NCBI RefSeq assembly: GCF_003334255.1
Contig: NZ_QOWU01000013.1
Source: Escherichia coli
GTDB lineage: Bacteria > Pseudomonadota > Gammaproteobacteria > Enterobacterales > Enterobacteriaceae
Strand: one strand, 5' to 3'
DNA length: 64,000 nucleotides
In this document: positions 5,013-42,297 of the stretch, one piece after another
Position numbering within the stretch: position 1 is the stretch's first letter
Layout: every line of letters begins with the position of its first letter
Position numbers and translations under genes: made by a program
The notes under the pieces: model-generated
Told to the model about the DNA's origin: nothing
Database searches by the model: none
Seen by the model: the letters and a program-made list of their open reading frames with translations, nothing else

Positions 5013-5436
5013 ATGCCGGATACGGCCTACGGTTCGGCACAGACTTGTAGGCCTGATAAGACGCGTCAAGCGTCGCATCAGGCATTGTGCGCCAACTGCC
5101 GGATGCGGCGCGAACGCCTTATCCGGCCTACGGTTCGGCACAAACCTGTAGGCATGATAAGACGCGACAAGCGTCGCATCAGGCATTATGCGCCGACTGC
5201 CGGATGCGGCGTGAACGCCTTATCCGGCCTACGGTTCGGCACAGACTTGTAGGCATGATAAGACGCGACAAGCGTCGCATCAGGCATTGTGCGCCAACTG
5301 CCGGATGCGGCGTGAACGCCTTATCCGGCCTACGGTTCGGCACAAACCTGTAGGCATGATAAGACGCGTTAAGCGTCGCATCAGGCATTGTGCGCCAACT
5401 GCCGGATGCGGCGTGAACGCCTTATCCGGCCTACGG
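5013..5436. repeat. BIME/REP tandem array, about 101-bp unit x 4 plus a partial unit
   Basis: gccggatgcggcg recurs at 5098, 5199, 5300 and 5401 (period 101 bp); each unit holds two inverted REP copies; ORFs predicted here on both strands are repeat artefacts. Confidence 0.8.
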
Positions 5437-13289: not shown

Positions 13290-13376
13290 GCGAAGGTGGC
13301 GGAATTGGTAGACGCGCTAGCTTCAGGTGTTAGTGTCCTTACGGACGTGGGGGTTCAAGTCCCCCCCCTCGCACCA
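13290..13376 (+). tRNA. leuV: tRNA-Leu (anticodon CAG), single copy
   Basis: 87-nt sequence GCGAAGGTGGCGGAATTGGTAGACGCGCTAGCTTCAGGTG...CCTCGCACCA with CAG anticodon, long variable arm and encoded CCA. Confidence 0.95.
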
Positions 13377-31564: not shown

Positions 31565-31597
31565 GGCCGCCATGTGGCGGCCTGAATTATTTTTTGT
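31565..31597 (+). terminator. Hairpin/terminator after yjiA (convergent with brnA)
   Basis: ggccgcc-atgt-ggcggcc hairpin followed by TGAATTATTTTTTG. Confidence 0.5.
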
Positions 31598-31889
31598 TCT
31601 GATCGCGCAGCATCGCTTCACGTAAAATTGCGTTCAGGCGAGTTTGATAGCCTTTACCAGGTCGCTTCAGCCATTCCATCACATCAGCATCAATACGCAC
31701 CGAAGCCTGGGTTTTCAATGGCCGATAAAACTTACCGCGTTCTGCGTTAGACCATTGCTCATCGCTGGAAGGTGGGATATCGCTGTAATCAATCTCTTCG
31801 TCGGATTTATTCGCCAGCGCCTTCAATTCGGCCTCATGCTGCACATCGAGTGTAGAGGAGGTCCCTCGTTTATGTTTAACCATGCTCAT
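31587..31889 (-). CDS. BrnA-like antitoxin (type II TA)
   Basis: About 100 aa from the ATG at 31889 (MSMVKHKRGTSSTLDVQHEAELKALANKSDEEIDYSDIPP...), GGAG ribosome-binding site 5 nt upstream; overlaps the toxin 3' end by 14 nt. Family assigned by resemblance, not alignment. Confidence 0.65.
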   Translation of the reverse strand: MSMVKHKRGTSSTLDVQHEAELKALANKSDEEIDYSDIPPSSDEQWSNAERGKFYRPLKTQASVRIDADVMEWLKRPGKGYQTRLNAILREAMLRDQNKK

Positions 31890-32163
31890 AGCGACTCCTC
31901 TCTTTACGATCTGCTTTTCGTGCACTGATGATTCGAATAATTTCATTTCCGCTTTCGAAACGGATGGTATGCGCAACCAGAATAACCACGATACCGTGAA
32001 CCACGCCGATAGTCTGCCAGCGATACTCACCGTTTTCTATGCGATCTTGCTGTGACAAATGTTGTGGATCATCAAACACCAACACCGCATCTTCAAAGCG
32101 GATGCCATGTTTCACCCGATTACTTTTGGCCTTGTTTGCATCCCATTCAAACTCCATTGGCAT
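31876..32163 (-). CDS. BrnT-like toxin (DUF497 ribonuclease family, type II TA)
   Basis: About 95 aa from the ATG at 32163 (MPMEFEWDANKAKSNRVKHGIRFEDAVLVFDDP...); toxin-first order with overlapping antitoxin, as in BrnT/BrnA modules. Confidence 0.65.
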   Translation of the reverse strand: MPMEFEWDANKAKSNRVKHGIRFEDAVLVFDDPQHLSQQDRIENGEYRWQTIGVVHGIVVILVAHTIRFESGNEIIRIISARKADRKERSRYEHG

Positions 32164-32178
32164 AGTTGCCATCCCTAA

Positions 32179-32190
32179 TTGTATATACAA
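32179..32190. promoter_or_regulatory. Perfect 12-bp palindrome upstream of brnT (candidate autoregulatory operator)
   Basis: ttgtatatacaa, 16 nt upstream of the brnT start codon within an AT-rich region. Confidence 0.35.
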
Positions 32191-32359
32191 AAATGTATCT
32201 ACAATTATTCTGCAATTATAGCGTTGATGTTGGAAATAGCATCACGTTTTGGATAATCAACCATGAAATTGACAATGAGTAAGTTGGACTTGATTCATCC
32301 AATAGAATTTCTCGCCTGACATGGCACACTAAACACCTCGCTGTCGTTAAGGGATTACC

Positions 32360-33526
32360 GTGAAAAACTATAAAGTTATTACCCCGCTTTTTCCTACCTA
32401 TGCACAGGTTAAAGCTATGATGAAAGCCGTCTCAGGCTATTCCCTGAAAGCGGTACGCAATATGATTACCGCCATTCACGAGCAAACCGGTACGCCGCAA
32501 AAACCCGTTGACTGGTCGGAACCCGACCTGTGGATCAGCGAGCGCTTAACGGGTGAAGATGCCGACATCGCCCGTCGTATTTGGGATACCGATAATCACA
32601 TCTTGAACCCGCGCCACAGCTACGGCTGCTACTTATTCCTCAACTATCCCCAGTTTGATCTGATGGAAAGCACACCAGATGATACCTGGCAGCCCACCTC
32701 GCACGGGCAAAAATTCCTGCAAGATGACGAAAAAACGCTGCGTTCACTGGACGATCAGGAAGGCATTCTGCAACTTCTTGAACTATTAGCTGGCCGCGAA
32801 ATGTCGCGCCGCGCCGATTTATTGCCGGAATGGCAGGCCTTTTTGCATCAGCATTCGAAATTCGCGTCTGCAAGTTCAGTGAAAAGCACGCTCTACTCCC
32901 GTCTCTATAACCTTATCGACCGTGACATGGTTAACCGTGAAGGCATGAGCTATCGCATCACCGATACCGGGCGCGCCTGACTTGGAAAAGCGTTACCTGC
33001 ACGAAAAAGCGATCCGCGTAAAGAGCTGTTGGAAGCGGTAAAACGCTATAACGAACAGCAAAAAGAGCTGCTGCGCGAACAAATCAGCACGATGAACCCG
33101 TACAAATTTGAACAACTGGTCGGTCAATTACTGGAAGCAATGGGCTACGAGCAGGTCGAAGTGACCAAAGCCTCTGGCGATAAAGGCGTGGACGTGATTG
33201 GTCAGGTGCAGGTCGGCATCACCACCATTACAGAAGTGGTGCAGGTCAAAAGAATGCAGAACACTATCACTCGCCCGTATATCGACCAGTTGCGCGGGGC
33301 GTTGCCTTACCACAAAGCCATTCGCGGTACGCTCATCACCACCGGGAAATTTGCGGCGAAATGTGCAGAAGCGGCGCTCTTTCCGGGTGCCGCGCCCATT
33401 ACGCTTATCGACGGCGATCGTTTACTGGAACTGTTAATCGAAAATAACGTCGGCATTCGCCGCAGCAATGCAGTGGAATTGCTGGATGTAGATTTGCAGT
33501 TGTTTGATGAGCTGGAGATGGATTAA
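32360..33526 (+). pseudogene. Mrr-family restriction endonuclease gene interrupted by an in-frame TGA
   Basis: One reading frame from the GTG at 32360 to 33526, broken only by TGA at 32978-32980; the C-terminal part (...GDKGVDVIGQVQ...VQVKRMQNTITRPYIDQL...TTGKF...) is a typical Mrr catalytic domain, and translation across the stop reads as a continuous linker. Confidence 0.65.
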
Positions 33527-33589
33527 AGGGCGAAATCCGCCGCCTCAACCATTACAATAGCGACCCAATTTATCTGAACAGAGTTCATC

Positions 33590-35198
<1,609 letters not shown>

Positions 35199-35209
<11 letters not shown>

Positions 35210-36590
35210 TGGCTTCAAGTTACCTCTAGGATGGAATTGTAAAAAACTGGTTGATTGTACAAAGGAGGGAAATATCTCTTATGGTATTGTTCAACCAGGT
35301 CAGCATCAAGAAGATGGCATTGGTATTATTCGTGTAAATAATATACAAAATGGAAATATTTACATAGACGATGTTCTGAAGGTTTCTCATGAAATAGAAA
35401 GTAAATTTGCCAAAACTAGGTTAGAAGGAGGAGAAGTACTTTTAACACTAGTGGGTTCCACTGGAATTAGCGCCATTACAACTAAAGCACTACAGGGATG
35501 GAATGTTGCTCGTGCCGTAGCCGTAATTAAGCCATGCGATGAAATAAGTGCAGAGTGGATACATATTTGCCTCCAATCACCTTTTACAAAATATTTTTTG
35601 GATTCCAGAGCTAATACTACTGTTCAGAAAACTCTCAATCTCAAAGACGTGAAAGAAATTCCATTACCAATTCCTCCACATGAGGAAAGAGTAAGTCTTG
35701 AGAAAATTTACTTCAATTTTGAGAATAGAATAAACTTAAATATAAAAATTAATAAAATCCTAGAAGAAATGTCACAAAACCTGTTCAAATCCTGGTTTGT
35801 AGATTTTGATCCGGTGGTTGATAACGCTCTGGATGCAGGAAACCCAATTCCGGAAGCCCTGCAATCTCGCGCCGAATTGCGTCAAAAAGTACGTAATAGT
35901 GCAGATTTTAAACCGCTTCCGGCGGAAATCCGCTCGCTTTTCCCAAGTGAATTTGAAGAAACGGAGTTGGGTTGGATGCCAAAGGGATGGCAAATTAAAT
36001 CATTAGATCATATTGCTAATTTCCAGAATGGTTTGGCTTTACAAAAATTTAGGCCGAAGAATATGGAGGATGATTATTTACCTGTATTAAAAATAGCAGA
36101 TCTCCGAGCAGGACAAATAACTAATGACGAACGAGCAAGAACTGATATTTCTGATAGTTGTAAGGTGTATGACGGCGATATGATTTTCTCATGGTCGGGG
36201 ACTTTGATGATCGATATTTGGACTGGTGGGAATGCTGCATTAAATCAGCATTTATATAAGGTCACATCAAAAAAATACCCACAATCTTTTTATTTTATGT
36301 GGACAATACAGCATCTTTCAAGATTTCAACATATTGCAGAGGCAAAAGCGGTAACAATGGGGCACATCAAAAAAGGAGATTTAAGTAACTCTTTCTGTCT
36401 AATTCCTACTTCATCGTTGATTACTAAATATGATAATATCGTTGGAGGATATTTAGCGAAGATTAAAAATCAAAGATTGTTAAATAACCAAATGACCGCC
36501 CTACGCGACACCCTGCTCCCGAAACTCATCTCCGGCGAGCTATCCCTGGACGATATTCCGGATCTCAACACCGATACAGAAGCTGCATAA
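35199..36590 (+). CDS. hsdS: Type I restriction-modification specificity subunit HsdS
   Basis: 463 aa; ATG overlaps the hsdM stop by 11 nt (GGAGGGG ribosome-binding site); two AT-rich variable regions separated by GC-richer conserved central and C-terminal segments. Confidence 0.85.
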
Positions 36591-36684
36591 CGCATTTTGC
36601 CCCTGTAAAATCAGGGGCTTTCTGGTAAGGTTTTCTACTGATACGGGAATGCTTACCAGAAATTAGCCAGGGTTGGAGCGCGAT

Positions 36685-39600
36685 ATGAGTCTCTCTTTCA
36701 GTGAAGCAAAATTAGAACAAGCGATCATTGAACTGTTACAGGATCAGGGATATCAACACCTGATCGGCGATAATGTCCCACGTTCGACTCTCGATCAGGT
36801 CATTATCGAAGACGATCTCCGTCATTATTTAGCGGCACGCTACCAGCCTGATGGCATTACTGAAGAAGAGATTCAGCGACTGATCAAACAGTTCACCACG
36901 CTTCCGGCCTCCGATCTTTATGAAAGCAACAAAACATTTTGTCGCTGGCTGGCAAATGGTTTTCTGTTCAAACGCGACGATCGGCAAAAAAAAGATCTCT
37001 ATATTGAATTGCTCGACACCCGGCATCTACCTGCCGCACTGCGCCAGATATTTGACGCTGAAGATGTCCCGTTGCAACAGGCGGCGGAACTCCCGCCCTC
37101 CTATATTAATCCGCCGCTTAACCGGATTAAGATTGTTAACCAGCTTAAAATCTCCGGTAAAGATAATCAGACTCGTATTCCTGACGGCATTCTCTATATC
37201 AACGGTCTGCCACTGGTCGTCTTTGAATTTAAAAGCGCGGTGCGCGAGCAGGAAGCCAATATAGGCGATGCCTGGAAGCAGCTCTGCAAACGCTATCGCC
37301 GGGATATTCCGCAACTGTTTATCTACAACGCGCTCTGCATTATTAGCGATGGTGTAAATAACCGGATGGGCAACCTGTTTGCGCCCTATGAATACTTTTA
37401 CTCATGGCGCAAAGTCACCGGTAATGAAAACCGTGAACAGGACGGAATTCCATCATTGCACTCAATGATTCAGGGACTGTTTCATCCGGTACGTCTGTTG
37501 GATGTGATTAAAAACTTTATCTGCTTCCCGGATAAAGCCAAGCACGAAGTAAAAATTTGCTGCCGATATCCGCAGTACTATGCCGCCCGCAAACTCTATT
37601 ACAGCATCAAGCAAGCGCGTAAACCTTTCGGTAGCGGTAAAGGCGGTACCTACTTTGGCGCAACGGGCTGCGGAAAAAGCTACACCATGCAATTTTTAAC
37701 CCGCCTGTTAATGAAAAGCGTGGAGTTTGCCAGCCCGACCATTGTTTTGATCACCGACCGTACCGATCTGGACGATCAGCTTTCTGCGCAAATGTGCAAC
37801 GCCAAAAATTACATTGGCGATGACACCATCGTTCCCGTTACCAGCCGTGAAGATTTGCGTAATCAACTGGCGGGACGCAATAGTGGCGGTGTATTCCTGA
37901 CAACGATCCATAAATTCACCGAAGACACCGAACTCCTTTCTGAACGCAGCAATATCATTTGCATCTCGGACGAAGCACATCGCAGTCAGGTTAACCTCGA
38001 CCAGAAAGTCATCGTCGATAAAGAAAGCGGAAAAGTGCGCAAAACTTATGGCTTTGCGAAATACCTGCACGATTCACTGCCAAACGCCACCTATGTTGGC
38101 TTTACCGGAACTCCGATTGACGCAACACTCGATGTCTTCGGTGAGGTGATCGACAGTTACACCATGACCGAATCCGTTCAGGATGAAATCACTGTACGCA
38201 TCGTGTACGAAGGCCGTGCGGCTAAAGTGATCCTGGACTCCAGCAAACTGGAAGAAGTCGAAAAGTATTACGAAGAGTGCGCAAACGCAGGCACCAATGA
38301 GTGGCAAATCGACGAAAGCAAAAAAGCCACCGCAACCATGAATGCGGTACTGGGTGATGAAGATCGGTTAAAAGCCCTCGCGGAAGATTTTGCCAAACAT
38401 TATGAAAAACGCGTAGCCGAAGGTTCCACCGTAAAAGGCAAAGCCATGTTTGTTTGTGCCAGCCGTGAAATTGCCTGGGATTTCTACCGCCAGCTTAAAG
38501 TTATTCGCCCTGCCTGGTTTGAAGTGAAGCAAGCCCCCGATGGCGTCGTCCTGACGGAACAGGAGCAGAAAGAGTTACCGCCTTCTGAAATGGTGAAGAT
38601 GGTCATGACGCGCGGTAAAGATGACGACGAGGCGCTTTATGATTTACTGGGCACAAAAGAATATCGCAAAGAGCTGGATAAGCAGTTCAAAAACGCTAAA
38701 TCGAATTTCAAAATTGCCATTGTTGTTGATATGTGGCTGACCGGTTTTGATGTTCCTGAACTGGATACCATCTATATTGATAAGCCCTTACAAAAACATA
38801 ACCTTATCCAGACTATTTCTCGCGTTAACCGTAAACTGGAAGGCAAAAGCAAAGGGTTAGTAGTGGACTACATCGGCATTAAGAGTCAGATGAACCAGGC
38901 ACTGGCAATGTATTCCCGCATTGATGCCACCAACTTTGAAGATATTCAGCAATCGGTAATAGAAGTTAAAAACCATCTCGATTTGTTGGGGCAAGTATTT
39001 TATGAATTCGACAGTCGGGATTATTTTAGTGGTGAGCCACAAGCGCAATTATCCTGCCTCAACCGCGCGGCGGAATTTGTTCTGCGCACTCAGAAAGTTG
39101 AACGTCGTTTTATGGGACTGGTTAAACGCATGAAAGCCGCCTACGACGTCTGCTGCGGCAGTGAAGCACTATCACAGACAGAACGTGATCATATTCACTA
39201 TTATCTTGCTGTTCGTTCAATTGTTTTCAAACTGACGAAAGGTGACGCACCGGATGTCACCCAGATGAATGCACGCGTTCGTGAAATGATTGCAGAAGCG
39301 CTAAAAGCTGATGGCGTAGAAGAAATTTATTTTCTTGGCGATAAAAAAGCGGAATCCATCGATATTTTTGACGAAGATTATCTGGCGCGAATTAACAAGA
39401 TCAAACTTCCGGCAACGAAGATCCAGTTATTACAAAAATTACTGGAAAAAGCGATCAGCGACTTCAAGAAAGTGAACCAGTTGCAAGGGATTAACTTCAC
39501 CCGCCGCTTCCAGGCGATTATAGATCGTTATAATGAGCGGCGAGAAGATGATGTACTCAACGGTGAAGAATTCGATACATTCAGTCAGGAAATGACCGAT

Positions 39601-39948
39601 ATTATCTATGATATTAAAACCGAAATGGGCACATGGGCCGATTTAGGTATTGATATTGAAGAAAAAGCGTTTTTCGACATTCTTGCTCATATGCGCGATA
39701 AATATCAGTTCACCTATGACGATGAAAAAATGCTGTCACTGGCAAAAGAGATGAAAAGCGTGGTTGACAACACATCGAAATATCCTGACTGGAGTAAACG
39801 CGATGATATTAAAGCGAAACTGAAAGTTGAACTTATTCTGCTTCTACACAAGCATAAGTTCCCGCCAGTAGCAAATGATGATGTTTATATGGGTGTGCTG
39901 GCACAGGCAGAGAATTTTAAAGAACATCATATGAGTGCTTTAAATTAA
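36685..39948 (+). CDS. hsdR: Type I restriction endonuclease subunit HsdR (helicase-nuclease)
   Basis: About 1087 aa from the ATG at 36685 (GGAG ribosome-binding site; ORF track starts at TTG 36673); Walker A GATGCGKS and DEAH box ISDEAHRSQ. Confidence 0.9.
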   Translation: MSLSFSEAKLEQAIIELLQDQGYQHLIGDNVPRSTLDQVIIEDDLRHYLAARYQPDGITEEEIQRLIKQFTTLPASDLYESNKTFCRWLANGFLFKRDDRQKKDLYIELLDTRHLPAALRQIFDAEDVPLQQAAELPPSYINPPLNRIKIVNQLKISGKDNQTRIPDGILYINGLPLVVFEFKSAVREQEANIGDAWKQLCKRYRRDIPQLFIYNALCIISDGVNNRMGNLFAPYEYFYSWRKVTGNENREQDGIPSLHSMIQGLFHPVRLLDVIKNFICFPDKAKHEVKICCRYPQYYAARKLYYSIKQARKPFGSGKGGTYFGATGCGKSYTMQFLTRLLMKSVEFASPTIVLITDRTDLDDQLSAQMCNAKNYIGDDTIVPVTSREDLRNQLAGRNSGGVFLTTIHKFTEDTELLSERSNIICISDEAHRSQVNLDQKVIVDKESGKVRKTYGFAKYLHDSLPNATYVGFTGTPIDATLDVFGEVIDSYTMTESVQDEITVRIVYEGRAAKVILDSSKLEEVEKYYEECANAGTNEWQIDESKKATATMNAVLGDEDRLKALAEDFAKHYEKRVAEGSTVKGKAMFVCASREIAWDFYRQLKVIRPAWFEVKQAPDGVVLTEQEQKELPPSEMVKMVMTRGKDDDEALYDLLGTKEYRKELDKQFKNAKSNFKIAIVVDMWLTGFDVPELDTIYIDKPLQKHNLIQTISRVNRKLEGKSKGLVVDYIGIKSQMNQALAMYSRIDATNFEDIQQSVIEVKNHLDLLGQVFYEFDSRDYFSGEPQAQLSCLNRAAEFVLRTQKVERRFMGLVKRMKAAYDVCCGSEALSQTERDHIHYYLAVRSIVFKLTKGDAPDVTQMNARVREMIAEALKADGVEEIYFLGDKKAESIDIFDEDYLARINKIKLPATKIQLLQKLLEKAISDFKKVNQLQGINFTRRFQAIIDRYNERREDDVLNGEEFDTFSQEMTDIIYDIKTEMGTWADLGIDIEEKAFFDILAHMRDKYQFTYDDEKMLSLAKEMKSVVDNTSKYPDWSKRDDIKAKLKVELILLLHKHKFPPVANDDVYMGVLAQAENFKEHHMSALN

Positions 39949-40070
39949 TTATGAAGGCCGGATACACTTTGTTATCCGGCCATTCTGAATTAACGTTAAT
40001 TTCTCTTCCAGATCTTTCCAGTAACGCTTTTATTATTTTCTATTTTTAGCTGGACTTCCCCCCATATTTA

Positions 40071-40086
40071 CTGATGATATATCCAG
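40071..40086 (+). promoter_or_regulatory. LexA box upstream of symE
   Basis: CTGATGATATATCCAG, i.e. CTG-N10-CAG with an AT-rich centre, close to the LexA consensus CTGT-N8-ACAG; about 80 bp upstream of symE. Confidence 0.55.
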
Positions 40087-40109
40087 GTATTTAGCGCGGT
40101 GCGGATGTG

Positions 40110-40190
40110 CGCCAACACACCCGCACCGCTCATCACAATCACTATTTATGGAGAATAGTAATCATGACTGACACGCATTCTATTGCACAA
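40110..40190 (-). ncRNA. symR: Candidate SymR antisense sRNA (coordinates approximate)
   Basis: Placed by established knowledge that a roughly 77-nt antisense RNA overlaps the symE 5' UTR and start; an inverted repeat gcggtgcgg...ccgcaccgc (40095-40129) lies at the predicted 3' end. Not independently detectable from sequence alone. Confidence 0.3.
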
Positions 40191-40502
40191 CCGTTCGAAC
40201 CAGAAGTCTCTCCTGCAAATAACCGTCAATTAACCGTGAGCTATGCGAGCCGCTACCCGGATTACAGCCGTATTCCCGCCATCACCCTGAAAGGTCAGTG
40301 GCTGGAAGCCGCCGGTTTTGCCACCGGCACTGTGGTAGATGTCAAAGTGATGGAAGGCTGTATTGTCCTCACCGCCCAACCACCCGCCGCCGAAGAGGGC
40401 GAACTGATGCAGTCGCTGCGCCAGGTGTGCAAACTGTCGGCGCGTAAACAAAGGCAGGTGCAGGATTTTATTGGGGTGATTAGTAGCAAAACGCCACGCT
40501 AA
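40164..40502 (+). CDS. symE: SOS-induced toxin-like protein SymE
   Basis: 112 aa from the ATG at 40164 ([52 protein letters not shown]...); LexA box upstream. Confidence 0.85.
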
Positions 40503-40543
40503 GTTTCTCTCCCCTTCCCCATACGGGAAGGGAAATTGCCCCC

Positions 40544-40708
40544 TCACTCCACATCCTCCCTGCGTAACCCGATATCCCTCAACCGCTCATCACTCATCTG
40601 CTGTAACACCCGCCGGGCCTGCATTTGCCGCCGCCAACGCCTCACCGCCTGCCAGAGTTGCACGAAGCCGATAAACGGCGCGTTGGCTTTGTTTTCGTGA
40701 AATTCCAT
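40544..40708 (-). CDS. yjiS: Small DUF1127-family protein
   Basis: 54-aa ORF absent from the ORF track (below its length cutoff): MEFHENKANAPFIGFVQLWQAVRRWRRQMQARRVLQQMSDERLRDIGLRREDVE, with GAGGAGG ribosome-binding site 6 nt upstream; divergent from yjiR. Confidence 0.75.
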   Translation of the reverse strand: MEFHENKANAPFIGFVQLWQAVRRWRRQMQARRVLQQMSDERLRDIGLRREDVE

Positions 40709-40884
40709 CTGCTGCCTCCTCATCTTTCAGAGGCTTCATCATCCGCCTTCTGGCAGTTCACAATACAGATGCAAATATTAGTTTTATTTAACATACAGAC
40801 AGGTTAAAACAGCATCTGCATCCGGTTTTTTAGCCTCATCTGTACCGGTTTTTCTCTCTGTATGGTCCAAATAAGGAATACAGC

Positions 40885-42297
40885 ATGACGCGTTATCAAC
40901 ATCTGGCAACTCTGCTTGCCGAGCGGATTGAGCAAGGGCTGTATCGTCACGGGGAGAAATTGCCGTCGGTGCGCAGCTTAAGTCAGGAGCACGGCGTCAG
41001 CATCAGCACCGTGCAGCAGGCGTATCAGACGCTGGAGACGATGAAGCTCATCACTCCGCAGCCGCGTTCGGGGTATTTTGTCGCACAACGTAAAGCCCAG
41101 CCGCCAGTGCCGCCGATGACGCGTCCGGTGCAGCGCCCGGTGGAAATTACCCAGTGGGATCAGGTGCTGGATATGCTGGAGGCGCATAGCGACAGTTCCA
41201 TTGTTCCGTTAAGCAAAAGCACGCCGGATGTCGAAACGCCCAGCCTGAAACCGCTCTGGCGGGAGCTAAGCCGGGTGGTGCAGCATAATCTGCAAACCGT
41301 TCTCGGTTATGACTTGTTAGCCGGTCAGCGAGTGTTGCGGGAGCAGATTGCCCGCCTGATGCTCGACAGTGGCTCGGTGGTCACCGCCGATGACATCATC
41401 ATCACCAGCGGCTGCCATAACTCGATGTCGCTGGCGTTAATGGCGGTGTGTAAACCGGGCGATATTGTCGCGGTCGAATCCCCCTGTTATTACGGTTCGA
41501 TGCAGATGCTGCGTGGCATGGGCGTGAAAGTGATTGAAATCCCAACCGATCCAGAAACAGGCATCAGCGTTGAAGCGCTGGAACTGGCGCTGGAACAGTG
41601 GCCGATTAAAGGCATCATTCTGGTGCCAAACTGTAATAATCCGCTGGGATTTATTATGCCGGACGCGCGCAAACGGGCCGTTCTCTCTCTCGCTCAGCGT
41701 CATGATATTGTGATTTTTGAAGATGATGTCTACGGCGAACTGGCAACGGAGTATCCGCGCCCGCGGACCATTCATTCCTGGGATATCGACGGGCGAGTGC
41801 TGTTGTGCAGCTCGTTCAGTAAAAGCATTGCACCTGGCCTGCGCGTGGGTTGGGTCGCACCGGGGCGTTATCACGATAAACTGATGCATATGAAATACGC
41901 CATCAGCAGCTTTAATGTGCCGTCCACGCAAATGGCGGCGGCAACGTTTGTGCTGGAAGGTCACTATCATCGCCATATCCGGCGGATGCGGCAGACTTAT
42001 CAGCGCAATCTGGCACTTTATACCTGCTGGATACGGGAATATTTTCCCTGCGAAATCTGTATTACGCGCCCGAAAGGCGGATTTTTACTGTGGATAGAAT
42101 TGCCTGAACAGGTCGATATGGTCTGCGTCGCGCGGCAGCTGTGCCGCATGAAAATCCAGGTGGCGGCAGGCTCGATTTTCTCGGCTTCCGGCAAATACCG
42201 TAATTGTCTGCGCATCAACTGCGCTTTGCCGCTCAGCGAAACCTATCGCGAAGCACTGAAGCAAATTGGCGAAGCCGTGTATCGGGCAATGGAATGA
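40885..42297 (+). CDS. yjiR: MocR/GntR-family regulator with aminotransferase-like (PLP) domain
   Basis: 470 aa; N-terminal GntR HTH (LPSVRSLSQEHGVSISTVQQAYQTLE) followed by a large aminotransferase-like domain; AAGGAA ribosome-binding site. Confidence 0.9.
   Translation: MTRYQHLATLLAERIEQGLYRHGEKLPSVRSLSQEHGVSISTVQQAYQTLETMKLITPQPRSGYFVAQRKAQPPVPPMTRPVQRPVEITQWDQVLDMLEAHSDSSIVPLSKSTPDVETPSLKPLWRELSRVVQHNLQTVLGYDLLAGQRVLREQIARLMLDSGSVVTADDIIITSGCHNSMSLALMAVCKPGDIVAVESPCYYGSMQMLRGMGVKVIEIPTDPETGISVEALELALEQWPIKGIILVPNCNNPLGFIMPDARKRAVLSLAQRHDIVIFEDDVYGELATEYPRPRTIHSWDIDGRVLLCSSFSKSIAPGLRVGWVAPGRYHDKLMHMKYAISSFNVPSTQMAAATFVLEGHYHRHIRRMRQTYQRNLALYTCWIREYFPCEICITRPKGGFLLWIELPEQVDMVCVARQLCRMKIQVAAGSIFSASGKYRNCLRINCALPLSETYREALKQIGEAVYRAME

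Follow-up and report, generated by a model that had tools for sequence, protein, structure and literature searches.

The interval between positions 40071 and 40708 of the window, the term used here for the whole 64,000-nucleotide stretch of Escherichia coli DNA that was analyzed, almost certainly comprises two known and independent E. coli genes: symE, which together with the antisense RNA SymR forms a type I toxin-antitoxin-like module, and the convergently oriented yjiS. All of the elements named in this interval by a first-pass annotation are present, and they lie within two or three bases of where they had been placed. The window is a part of the E. coli chromosome that carries the immigration control region. 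A 1-kb query taken at the locus matches E. coli G1/2 with 100% identity and the type strain ATCC 11775, S88, and others with 99.9% identity; in these near-identical genomes, RefSeq annotates symE and yjiS just as they are found here, in the order type I restriction subunit R, symE, yjiS, yjiR. The locus is already known in every component. Its discovery value is accordingly small, as it is a textbook locus and both genes and the small RNA are present in public annotation and in family libraries.

The symE gene (40164..40502, plus strand) encodes a protein of 112 amino acids with a SymE/AbrB-MazE-like fold. The name proposed in the first-pass annotation is borne out by the NCBIfam equivalog NF010128 (219 bits vs. 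a cutoff of 132), by Pfam PF08845 (SymE_toxin, E = 4.5e-21), by the RefSeq annotation, and by 91% identity to the SymE protein of K-12, in which symE and symR (b4347 and b4625) were described as a type I toxin-antitoxin-like module (Kawano, Aravind and Storz, 2007). The start codon is the ATG at 40164, with a GGAGAA Shine-Dalgarno sequence at 40150-40155. A longer version of 131 amino acids, beginning at a GTG at 40107, is a mechanical ORF start and was rejected: it would run through symR, and both RefSeq and K-12 start at the ATG that is equipped with the Shine-Dalgarno sequence. At the other end of the protein, the last eight or so codons differ between the two strains, ISSKTPR closing a protein of 112 amino acids here vs. 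IAGKQKVA and 113 amino acids in K-12, because the homology to K-12 ends near 40478.

On the opposite strand, symR (40093..40169, minus strand) specifies a 77-nt cis-antisense RNA. The first-pass annotation had offered it only as a candidate, and alignment settles the matter: Rfam RF01809 is matched over all 77 model positions (95.3 bits vs. a gathering score of 61, E = 6e-19), which is the top gathering-level match across the whole window, and 70 of the 77 bases are identical to K-12 SymR, which has the same length and the same two hairpins. The RNA folds into two 15-bp hairpins (-43.7 kcal/mol, z = -7.7 vs. shuffles). The inverted repeat that had been pointed out at 40095..40129, where symR would be expected to terminate, is the second, terminal hairpin at the 3′ end of SymR; its 14-nt arms, GCGGTGCGGATGTG (40096-40109) and CACACCCGCACCGC (40116-40129), are 93% complementary, and the RNA extends 3 nt past the hairpin. 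The 5′ end of SymR, at 40169, falls six bases inside symE, and the RNA lies antisense to essentially the entire 5′ leader of symE, its Shine-Dalgarno sequence, its ATG (40164-40166), and its first 6 coding nucleotides. The order and spacing of the LexA box, SymR, and symE are as in K-12, with one extra C in the promoter spacer here. Rfam also returned C/D-box snoRNA families at 40706-40747, IS128 at 40007-40138, and a symR hairpin on the plus strand; all of these score far below gathering and were rejected.

Conservation of the module was assessed in a set of eight alleles, composed of the window, K-12, and six symE alleles fetched from genomes that sample the range of identities; overall divergence of the module across this set is 5-7%. 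Both SymR stems are conserved, 29 pairs being kept in the eight alleles, and the changes that occur are one-sided and wobble-compatible. No double compensatory change was found in the stems of these eight alleles; thus, covariation adds nothing beyond conservation. The promoter of symR is predicted to lie within the first codons of symE, with the -10 hexamer TAGAAT at 40177..40182 (minus strand); this places it 7 nt before the SymR 5′ end and within symE codons 5-7. This placement was taken from a published mutation, not from a sigma-70 scan: in K-12, changing CATTCT to CACTCC abolished SymR (Kawano et al., PMC1891008). The hexamer is the same here, and CATTCT (40176-40181, plus strand) is invariant in the eight alleles. 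As a separate observation, the allele of strain 463 (positions 453-529 of its locus) carries an exact reverse complement of the 12-nt apex of the SymR 3′ hairpin, GTGCGCCAACAC vs. GTGTTGGCGCAC in the window, where it corresponds to 40105-40116; the flanking stem is unchanged and the fold is preserved.

Upstream of symE, the LexA (SOS) box TACTGATGATATATCCAGGT occupies 40069..40088 and is orthologous to the box of K-12; the position 40071 from which the first-pass annotation had counted it is the C of its CTG. The box had been described as near-consensus, and its presence holds while that description does not. It keeps the CTG-N10-CAG frame and an A/T-rich spacer, and it matches the consensus TACTG(TA)5CAGTA at 14 of 20 positions, which makes it mid-to-weak; the K-12 symE box, with a published heterology index of 7.9, is itself mid-range (PMC11228462). 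The present box and the K-12 operator TACTGATGATATATACAGGT differ by the single base at 40083, an A in K-12 and a C here (ACAG to CCAG). For a quantitative comparison, all CTG-N10-CAG 20-mers upstream of 17 SOS genes were extracted from 16 K-12 loci, and a matrix for heterology indices of the Lewis type was built from the 18 of them that are established SOS operators. Scored in its best orientation, the present box has an index of 9.8 and the K-12 symE box, under the same matrix, 7.3; by leave-one-out scoring, the 18 operators themselves range from 0.3 to 12.4, so that the present box falls inside their range and scores better than the operators of ruvA and polB. It is also the best-scoring 20-mer on either strand of the 64-kb window. 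When the whole window was shuffled 200 times with its dinucleotide composition kept, 14% of the shuffles contained a site at least as good, and the chance expectation scaled to a 200-bp promoter region is about 5e-4, a value that uses position as prior knowledge. On sequence alone, therefore, the box is only suggestive, and what makes it credible is where it lies and that it is the orthologue of the K-12 box, rather than its score alone. LexA binding and SOS induction of symE have been reported for K-12 only, in work cited in PMC1891008; in K-12, symE showed no significant induction by AZT, yet its expression was LexA-dependent (PMC11228462). Among complete genomes, exact matches number 1977 for the CCAG allele and 440 for the ACAG allele of K-12, as counted with 41-nt probes centred on the variant base, for which megablast reports a match only if that base is identical. 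A literature search with the exact LexA-box strings matched only an unrelated paper, and a search on SOS or symE expression in B2/UPEC strains returned nothing useful.

Because the C at 40083 breaks up the second ACAG quartet and the index rises from 7.3 to 9.8, LexA repression of symE may be weaker here than in K-12. Carried to its extreme, this argument would mean that the CCAG allele no longer binds LexA usefully, and that in this lineage symE stands outside the SOS regulon and is checked only by SymR and Lon. The loss of the fourth conserved base from both half-sites (CTGA...CCAG) speaks for such a reading, as do the higher index and a score that is not rare by chance over 64 kb. However, a C at position 15 is shared with 7 of the 18 verified operators of K-12, among them uvrB, uvrD, recN, dinI, dinB, ruvA, and lexA2; the score still beats those of ruvA and polB; the CTG and CAG triplets are invariant in all eight alleles of a module that otherwise diverges by 5-7%; and CCAG is the commoner allele in the species. 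An operator that has ceased to function is quite improbable on this evidence, and we prefer a LexA-controlled symE with possibly relaxed repression. A similar question concerns the activity of the protein. In the original model, SymE is an mRNA-cleaving endoribonuclease toxin; RNA levels fell when SymE was overproduced, and it co-purified with ribosomes (PMC1891008), and the name “endoribonuclease SymE” persists in NCBIfam and in the PGAP/RefSeq annotation of the near-identical genomes. By contrast, later work (Thompson 2022, as summarised in PMC11894785) found that SymE binds DNA non-specifically and condenses the nucleoid, and according to that summary found no RNA cleavage. Furthermore, the RefSeq name in K-12 is now “nucleoid-associated protein SymE,” and the fold is that of a DNA-binding AbrB/MazE domain. 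The nuclease model is therefore unlikely, and the RefSeq product name that still carries it lags behind the current functional view.

By analogy with K-12, LexA bound at 40069-40088 would keep symE transcription off until DNA damage occurs, and SymR would be transcribed from its own promoter inside the first symE codons. Since SymR can pair without mismatch with the leader, ribosome-binding site, and start codon of symE, it would block translation and lower the level of the mRNA. The overlap with the ribosome-binding site and the start codon is a direct observation in this sequence; the effect on translation is one shown in K-12, where LexA repression, the block of translation by SymR together with reduced mRNA (independent of Hfq and RNase III), degradation by Lon, and toxicity on overproduction have been described (PMC1891008). 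As in K-12, SymE would be degraded by Lon, and any SymE that accumulated would probably be toxic by condensing the nucleoid through sequence-non-specific DNA binding, rather than by RNA cleavage. The tisB-istR pair is an SOS-controlled type I module of E. coli as well. There, too, a toxic protein is repressed by LexA and its translation is blocked by a constitutive small RNA; however, IstR is encoded beside its target and not opposite to it, unlike SymR, and TisB is a 29-amino-acid membrane peptide that is unrelated to SymE.

The second gene, yjiS (40544..40708, minus strand), encodes an arginine-rich protein of 54 amino acids. Pfam assigns residues 18-54 to PF06568 (DUF1127) with the whole model covered (E = 3.3e-12), and the sequence includes RRWRRQMQARRVLQQMSDERLRDIGLRREDVE and the C-terminal DIGLRREDVE with its DIGL motif. 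The K-12 protein has the same length, and 49 of the 54 residues are identical (91%), leaving five substitutions. A GAGGAGG ribosome-binding site is located at 40715-40721 (minus strand), 6 nt before the ATG at 40708. The first-pass annotation had recognized a 54-amino-acid DUF1127 ORF with a strong ribosome-binding site, convergent with symE; the family match, the identity to K-12, and the RefSeq annotation all agree with it. It had also called the gene missed by the ORF track, from which yjiS dropped out through the length cutoff only (the mechanical ORF, 40544-40723, is 59 amino acids long and the cutoff is 60); yjiS is a named, annotated, and experimentally studied gene. It encodes the single DUF1127 small protein of E. 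coli, which would be associated with the inner membrane and act by binding sensor kinases, namely PhoR in E. coli, where it would damp genes for phosphate uptake, and SsrA in Salmonella. The E. coli protein has been found to bind PhoR, and when it is lost pstS expression increases and phosphate is taken up faster (PMC12501420); the Salmonella protein associates with the membrane, interacts with SsrA, and delays the escape of the bacteria from macrophages (PMC11707872). The label “unknown function” no longer applies to YjiS. As in K-12, yjiS is divergent from yjiR, and the intergenic region (40709..40884) is almost identical in the two strains. This region contains short repeats: CCGGTTTTT occurs twice in direct orientation, at 40822 and 40845 (a spacing of 23 nt), and ATACAGATGC/GCATCTGCAT form an inverted repeat at 40763-40772 and 40812-40821. 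These repeats are candidate operators for the MocR/GntR-type regulator YjiR, which would suggest that YjiR controls yjiS.

Two further readings of open frames in the interval were considered. The frame of yjiS is open in the present strain from an upstream ATG at 40723, and initiation there would yield a protein of 59 amino acids. This ATG, however, coincides in part with GAGGAGG and lacks a ribosome-binding site of its own, and the protein is given as 54 amino acids in RefSeq and in the literature (PMC11707872, PMC12501420). In K-12, an in-frame TAG lies between the two ATGs; hence, the start at 40708 is the conserved one, and the longer product is very improbable. The other frame is a 105-amino-acid ORF with a GTG start, antisense to symE (40230..40547, minus strand), which the first-pass annotation had already suspected of being spurious. 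Its 105 open codons and its start codon are what could make it pass for a real overlapping gene, but it matches no NCBIfam family, and its start codon lies in strain-specific sequence that is absent from K-12. Moreover, the 16 differences from K-12 comprise 14 nonsynonymous and only 2 synonymous changes, mostly at the first positions of its codons, which coincide with third positions in symE, and one of them creates an in-frame stop that closes the frame in K-12. An overlapping gene is scarcely credible on these grounds, and the suspicion was well founded: the ORF is a spurious by-product of the symE frame. These two cases illustrate that a cutoff of 60 amino acids hides real small genes such as yjiS and still lists spurious antisense ORFs.

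The present strain differs from K-12 in the genes that surround the module. The wider order is yjiA, brnTA, an mrr-like pseudogene, hsdM-hsdS-hsdR, symE, yjiS, yjiR, rpn, and mdtM. In K-12, yjiT, yjiV, and mcrCB lie between yjiS and symE, so that the 3′ neighbour of symE is mcrB and that of yjiS is yjiT; this block is absent here, and, as a result, symE and yjiS converge with their ends 41 bp apart, each being the 3′ neighbour of the other. Upstream, symE follows EcoKI hsdS in K-12 and, in the present strain, the hsdR of an M-S-R ordered system; in both strains the module is directly downstream of a type I hsd operon. Several features of the neighbourhood may be recorded in their own right. 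The type I system has the order hsdM-hsdS-hsdR vs. R-M-S in K-12, and the mechanical ORF of hsdR starts at a TTG at 36673 where RefSeq starts at 36685. A brnT-brnA toxin-antitoxin pair lies within the part of the immigration control region at 31587-39948. The mrr-like restriction endonuclease gene (32360-33526) is a RefSeq pseudogene with an internal stop, whereas the rpn gene after yjiR is intact here and rpnD is a pseudogene in K-12. A 2025 review already names symE-symR, brnAT, and rpn as the toxin-antitoxin companions of type I systems in the region (PMC12707154).

Homology to K-12 begins near 40040, about 30 bp upstream of the LexA box, and ends near 40478, within the last eight symE codons, which defines a conserved symER cassette of about 440 bp. 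The cassette occurs in 2873 of 5426 complete E. coli genomes, and at all of the loci fetched its immediate upstream neighbour is a type I hsd operon and it is followed by mcrB, a gmrSD gene, or yjiS. The junction of symE with yjiS is found in about 920 of the 5426 genomes (approximately 17%), including the ST131 strain EC958. For E. coli, the cassette (40040-40478) is unusually polymorphic: 1975 of the 2873 genomes are 90-95% identical to the present allele and only 33 are at least 99% identical, which fits the reputation of the region as a variation hotspot. Just after the hsdR stop, at 39956..39981 (plus strand), the sequence GGCCGGATA-N8-TATCCGGCC forms a hairpin with 9-nt arms that are 100% complementary (-21.7 kcal/mol, z = -5.8). 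No T-run follows it and the terminator scan made no call there; the hairpin is an upstream boundary element outside the symER module. Elsewhere in the window, tRNA-Leu(CAG) is encoded by a single gene (13290-13376) vs. three tandem copies in the near-identical G1/2, and the window is shorter by exactly 236 bp, equal to two copies; the tandem array could have collapsed either by recombination or in the assembly. Between yjjW and yjjV (5050-5431, minus strand), four tandem repeat units of about 101 bp each match the Rfam family naRNA4 (nucleoid-associated ncRNA 4, a REP-type element) with 75-80 bits.

The short gap between the two convergent genes may bear on their transcription. A sigma-70 consensus scan of 39850-40950 called no promoter for symE, symR, or yjiS, and a scan of the same interval for intrinsic terminators called none for SymR, symE, or yjiS. 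Between the two stop codons there is a hairpin at 40509..40535, with 8 bp on the plus-strand RNA and 11 bp on the minus-strand RNA, whose z values of -2.4 and -2.1 are marginal and which lacks a U-tract on either strand; it is conserved in other genomes with the symE-yjiS arrangement. Read-through between symE and yjiS is conceivable because the 41-bp gap contains only this modest hairpin and because no promoter or terminator was called around it.

For the species, the counts of the two operator alleles mean that the LexA operator of K-12 symE, the one used in all experiments, is the minority allele. It is also tempting to speculate, although we give the idea only a slender chance, that in the roughly 17% of genomes that lack mcrBC or gmrSD, including ST131 and the present strain, antisense read-through of SOS-induced symE transcription into yjiS, or in the opposite direction, could couple the DNA-damage response to the YjiS/PhoR phosphate circuit, and that, separately, the CCAG operator may give leakier SOS control of symE than the K-12 allele.
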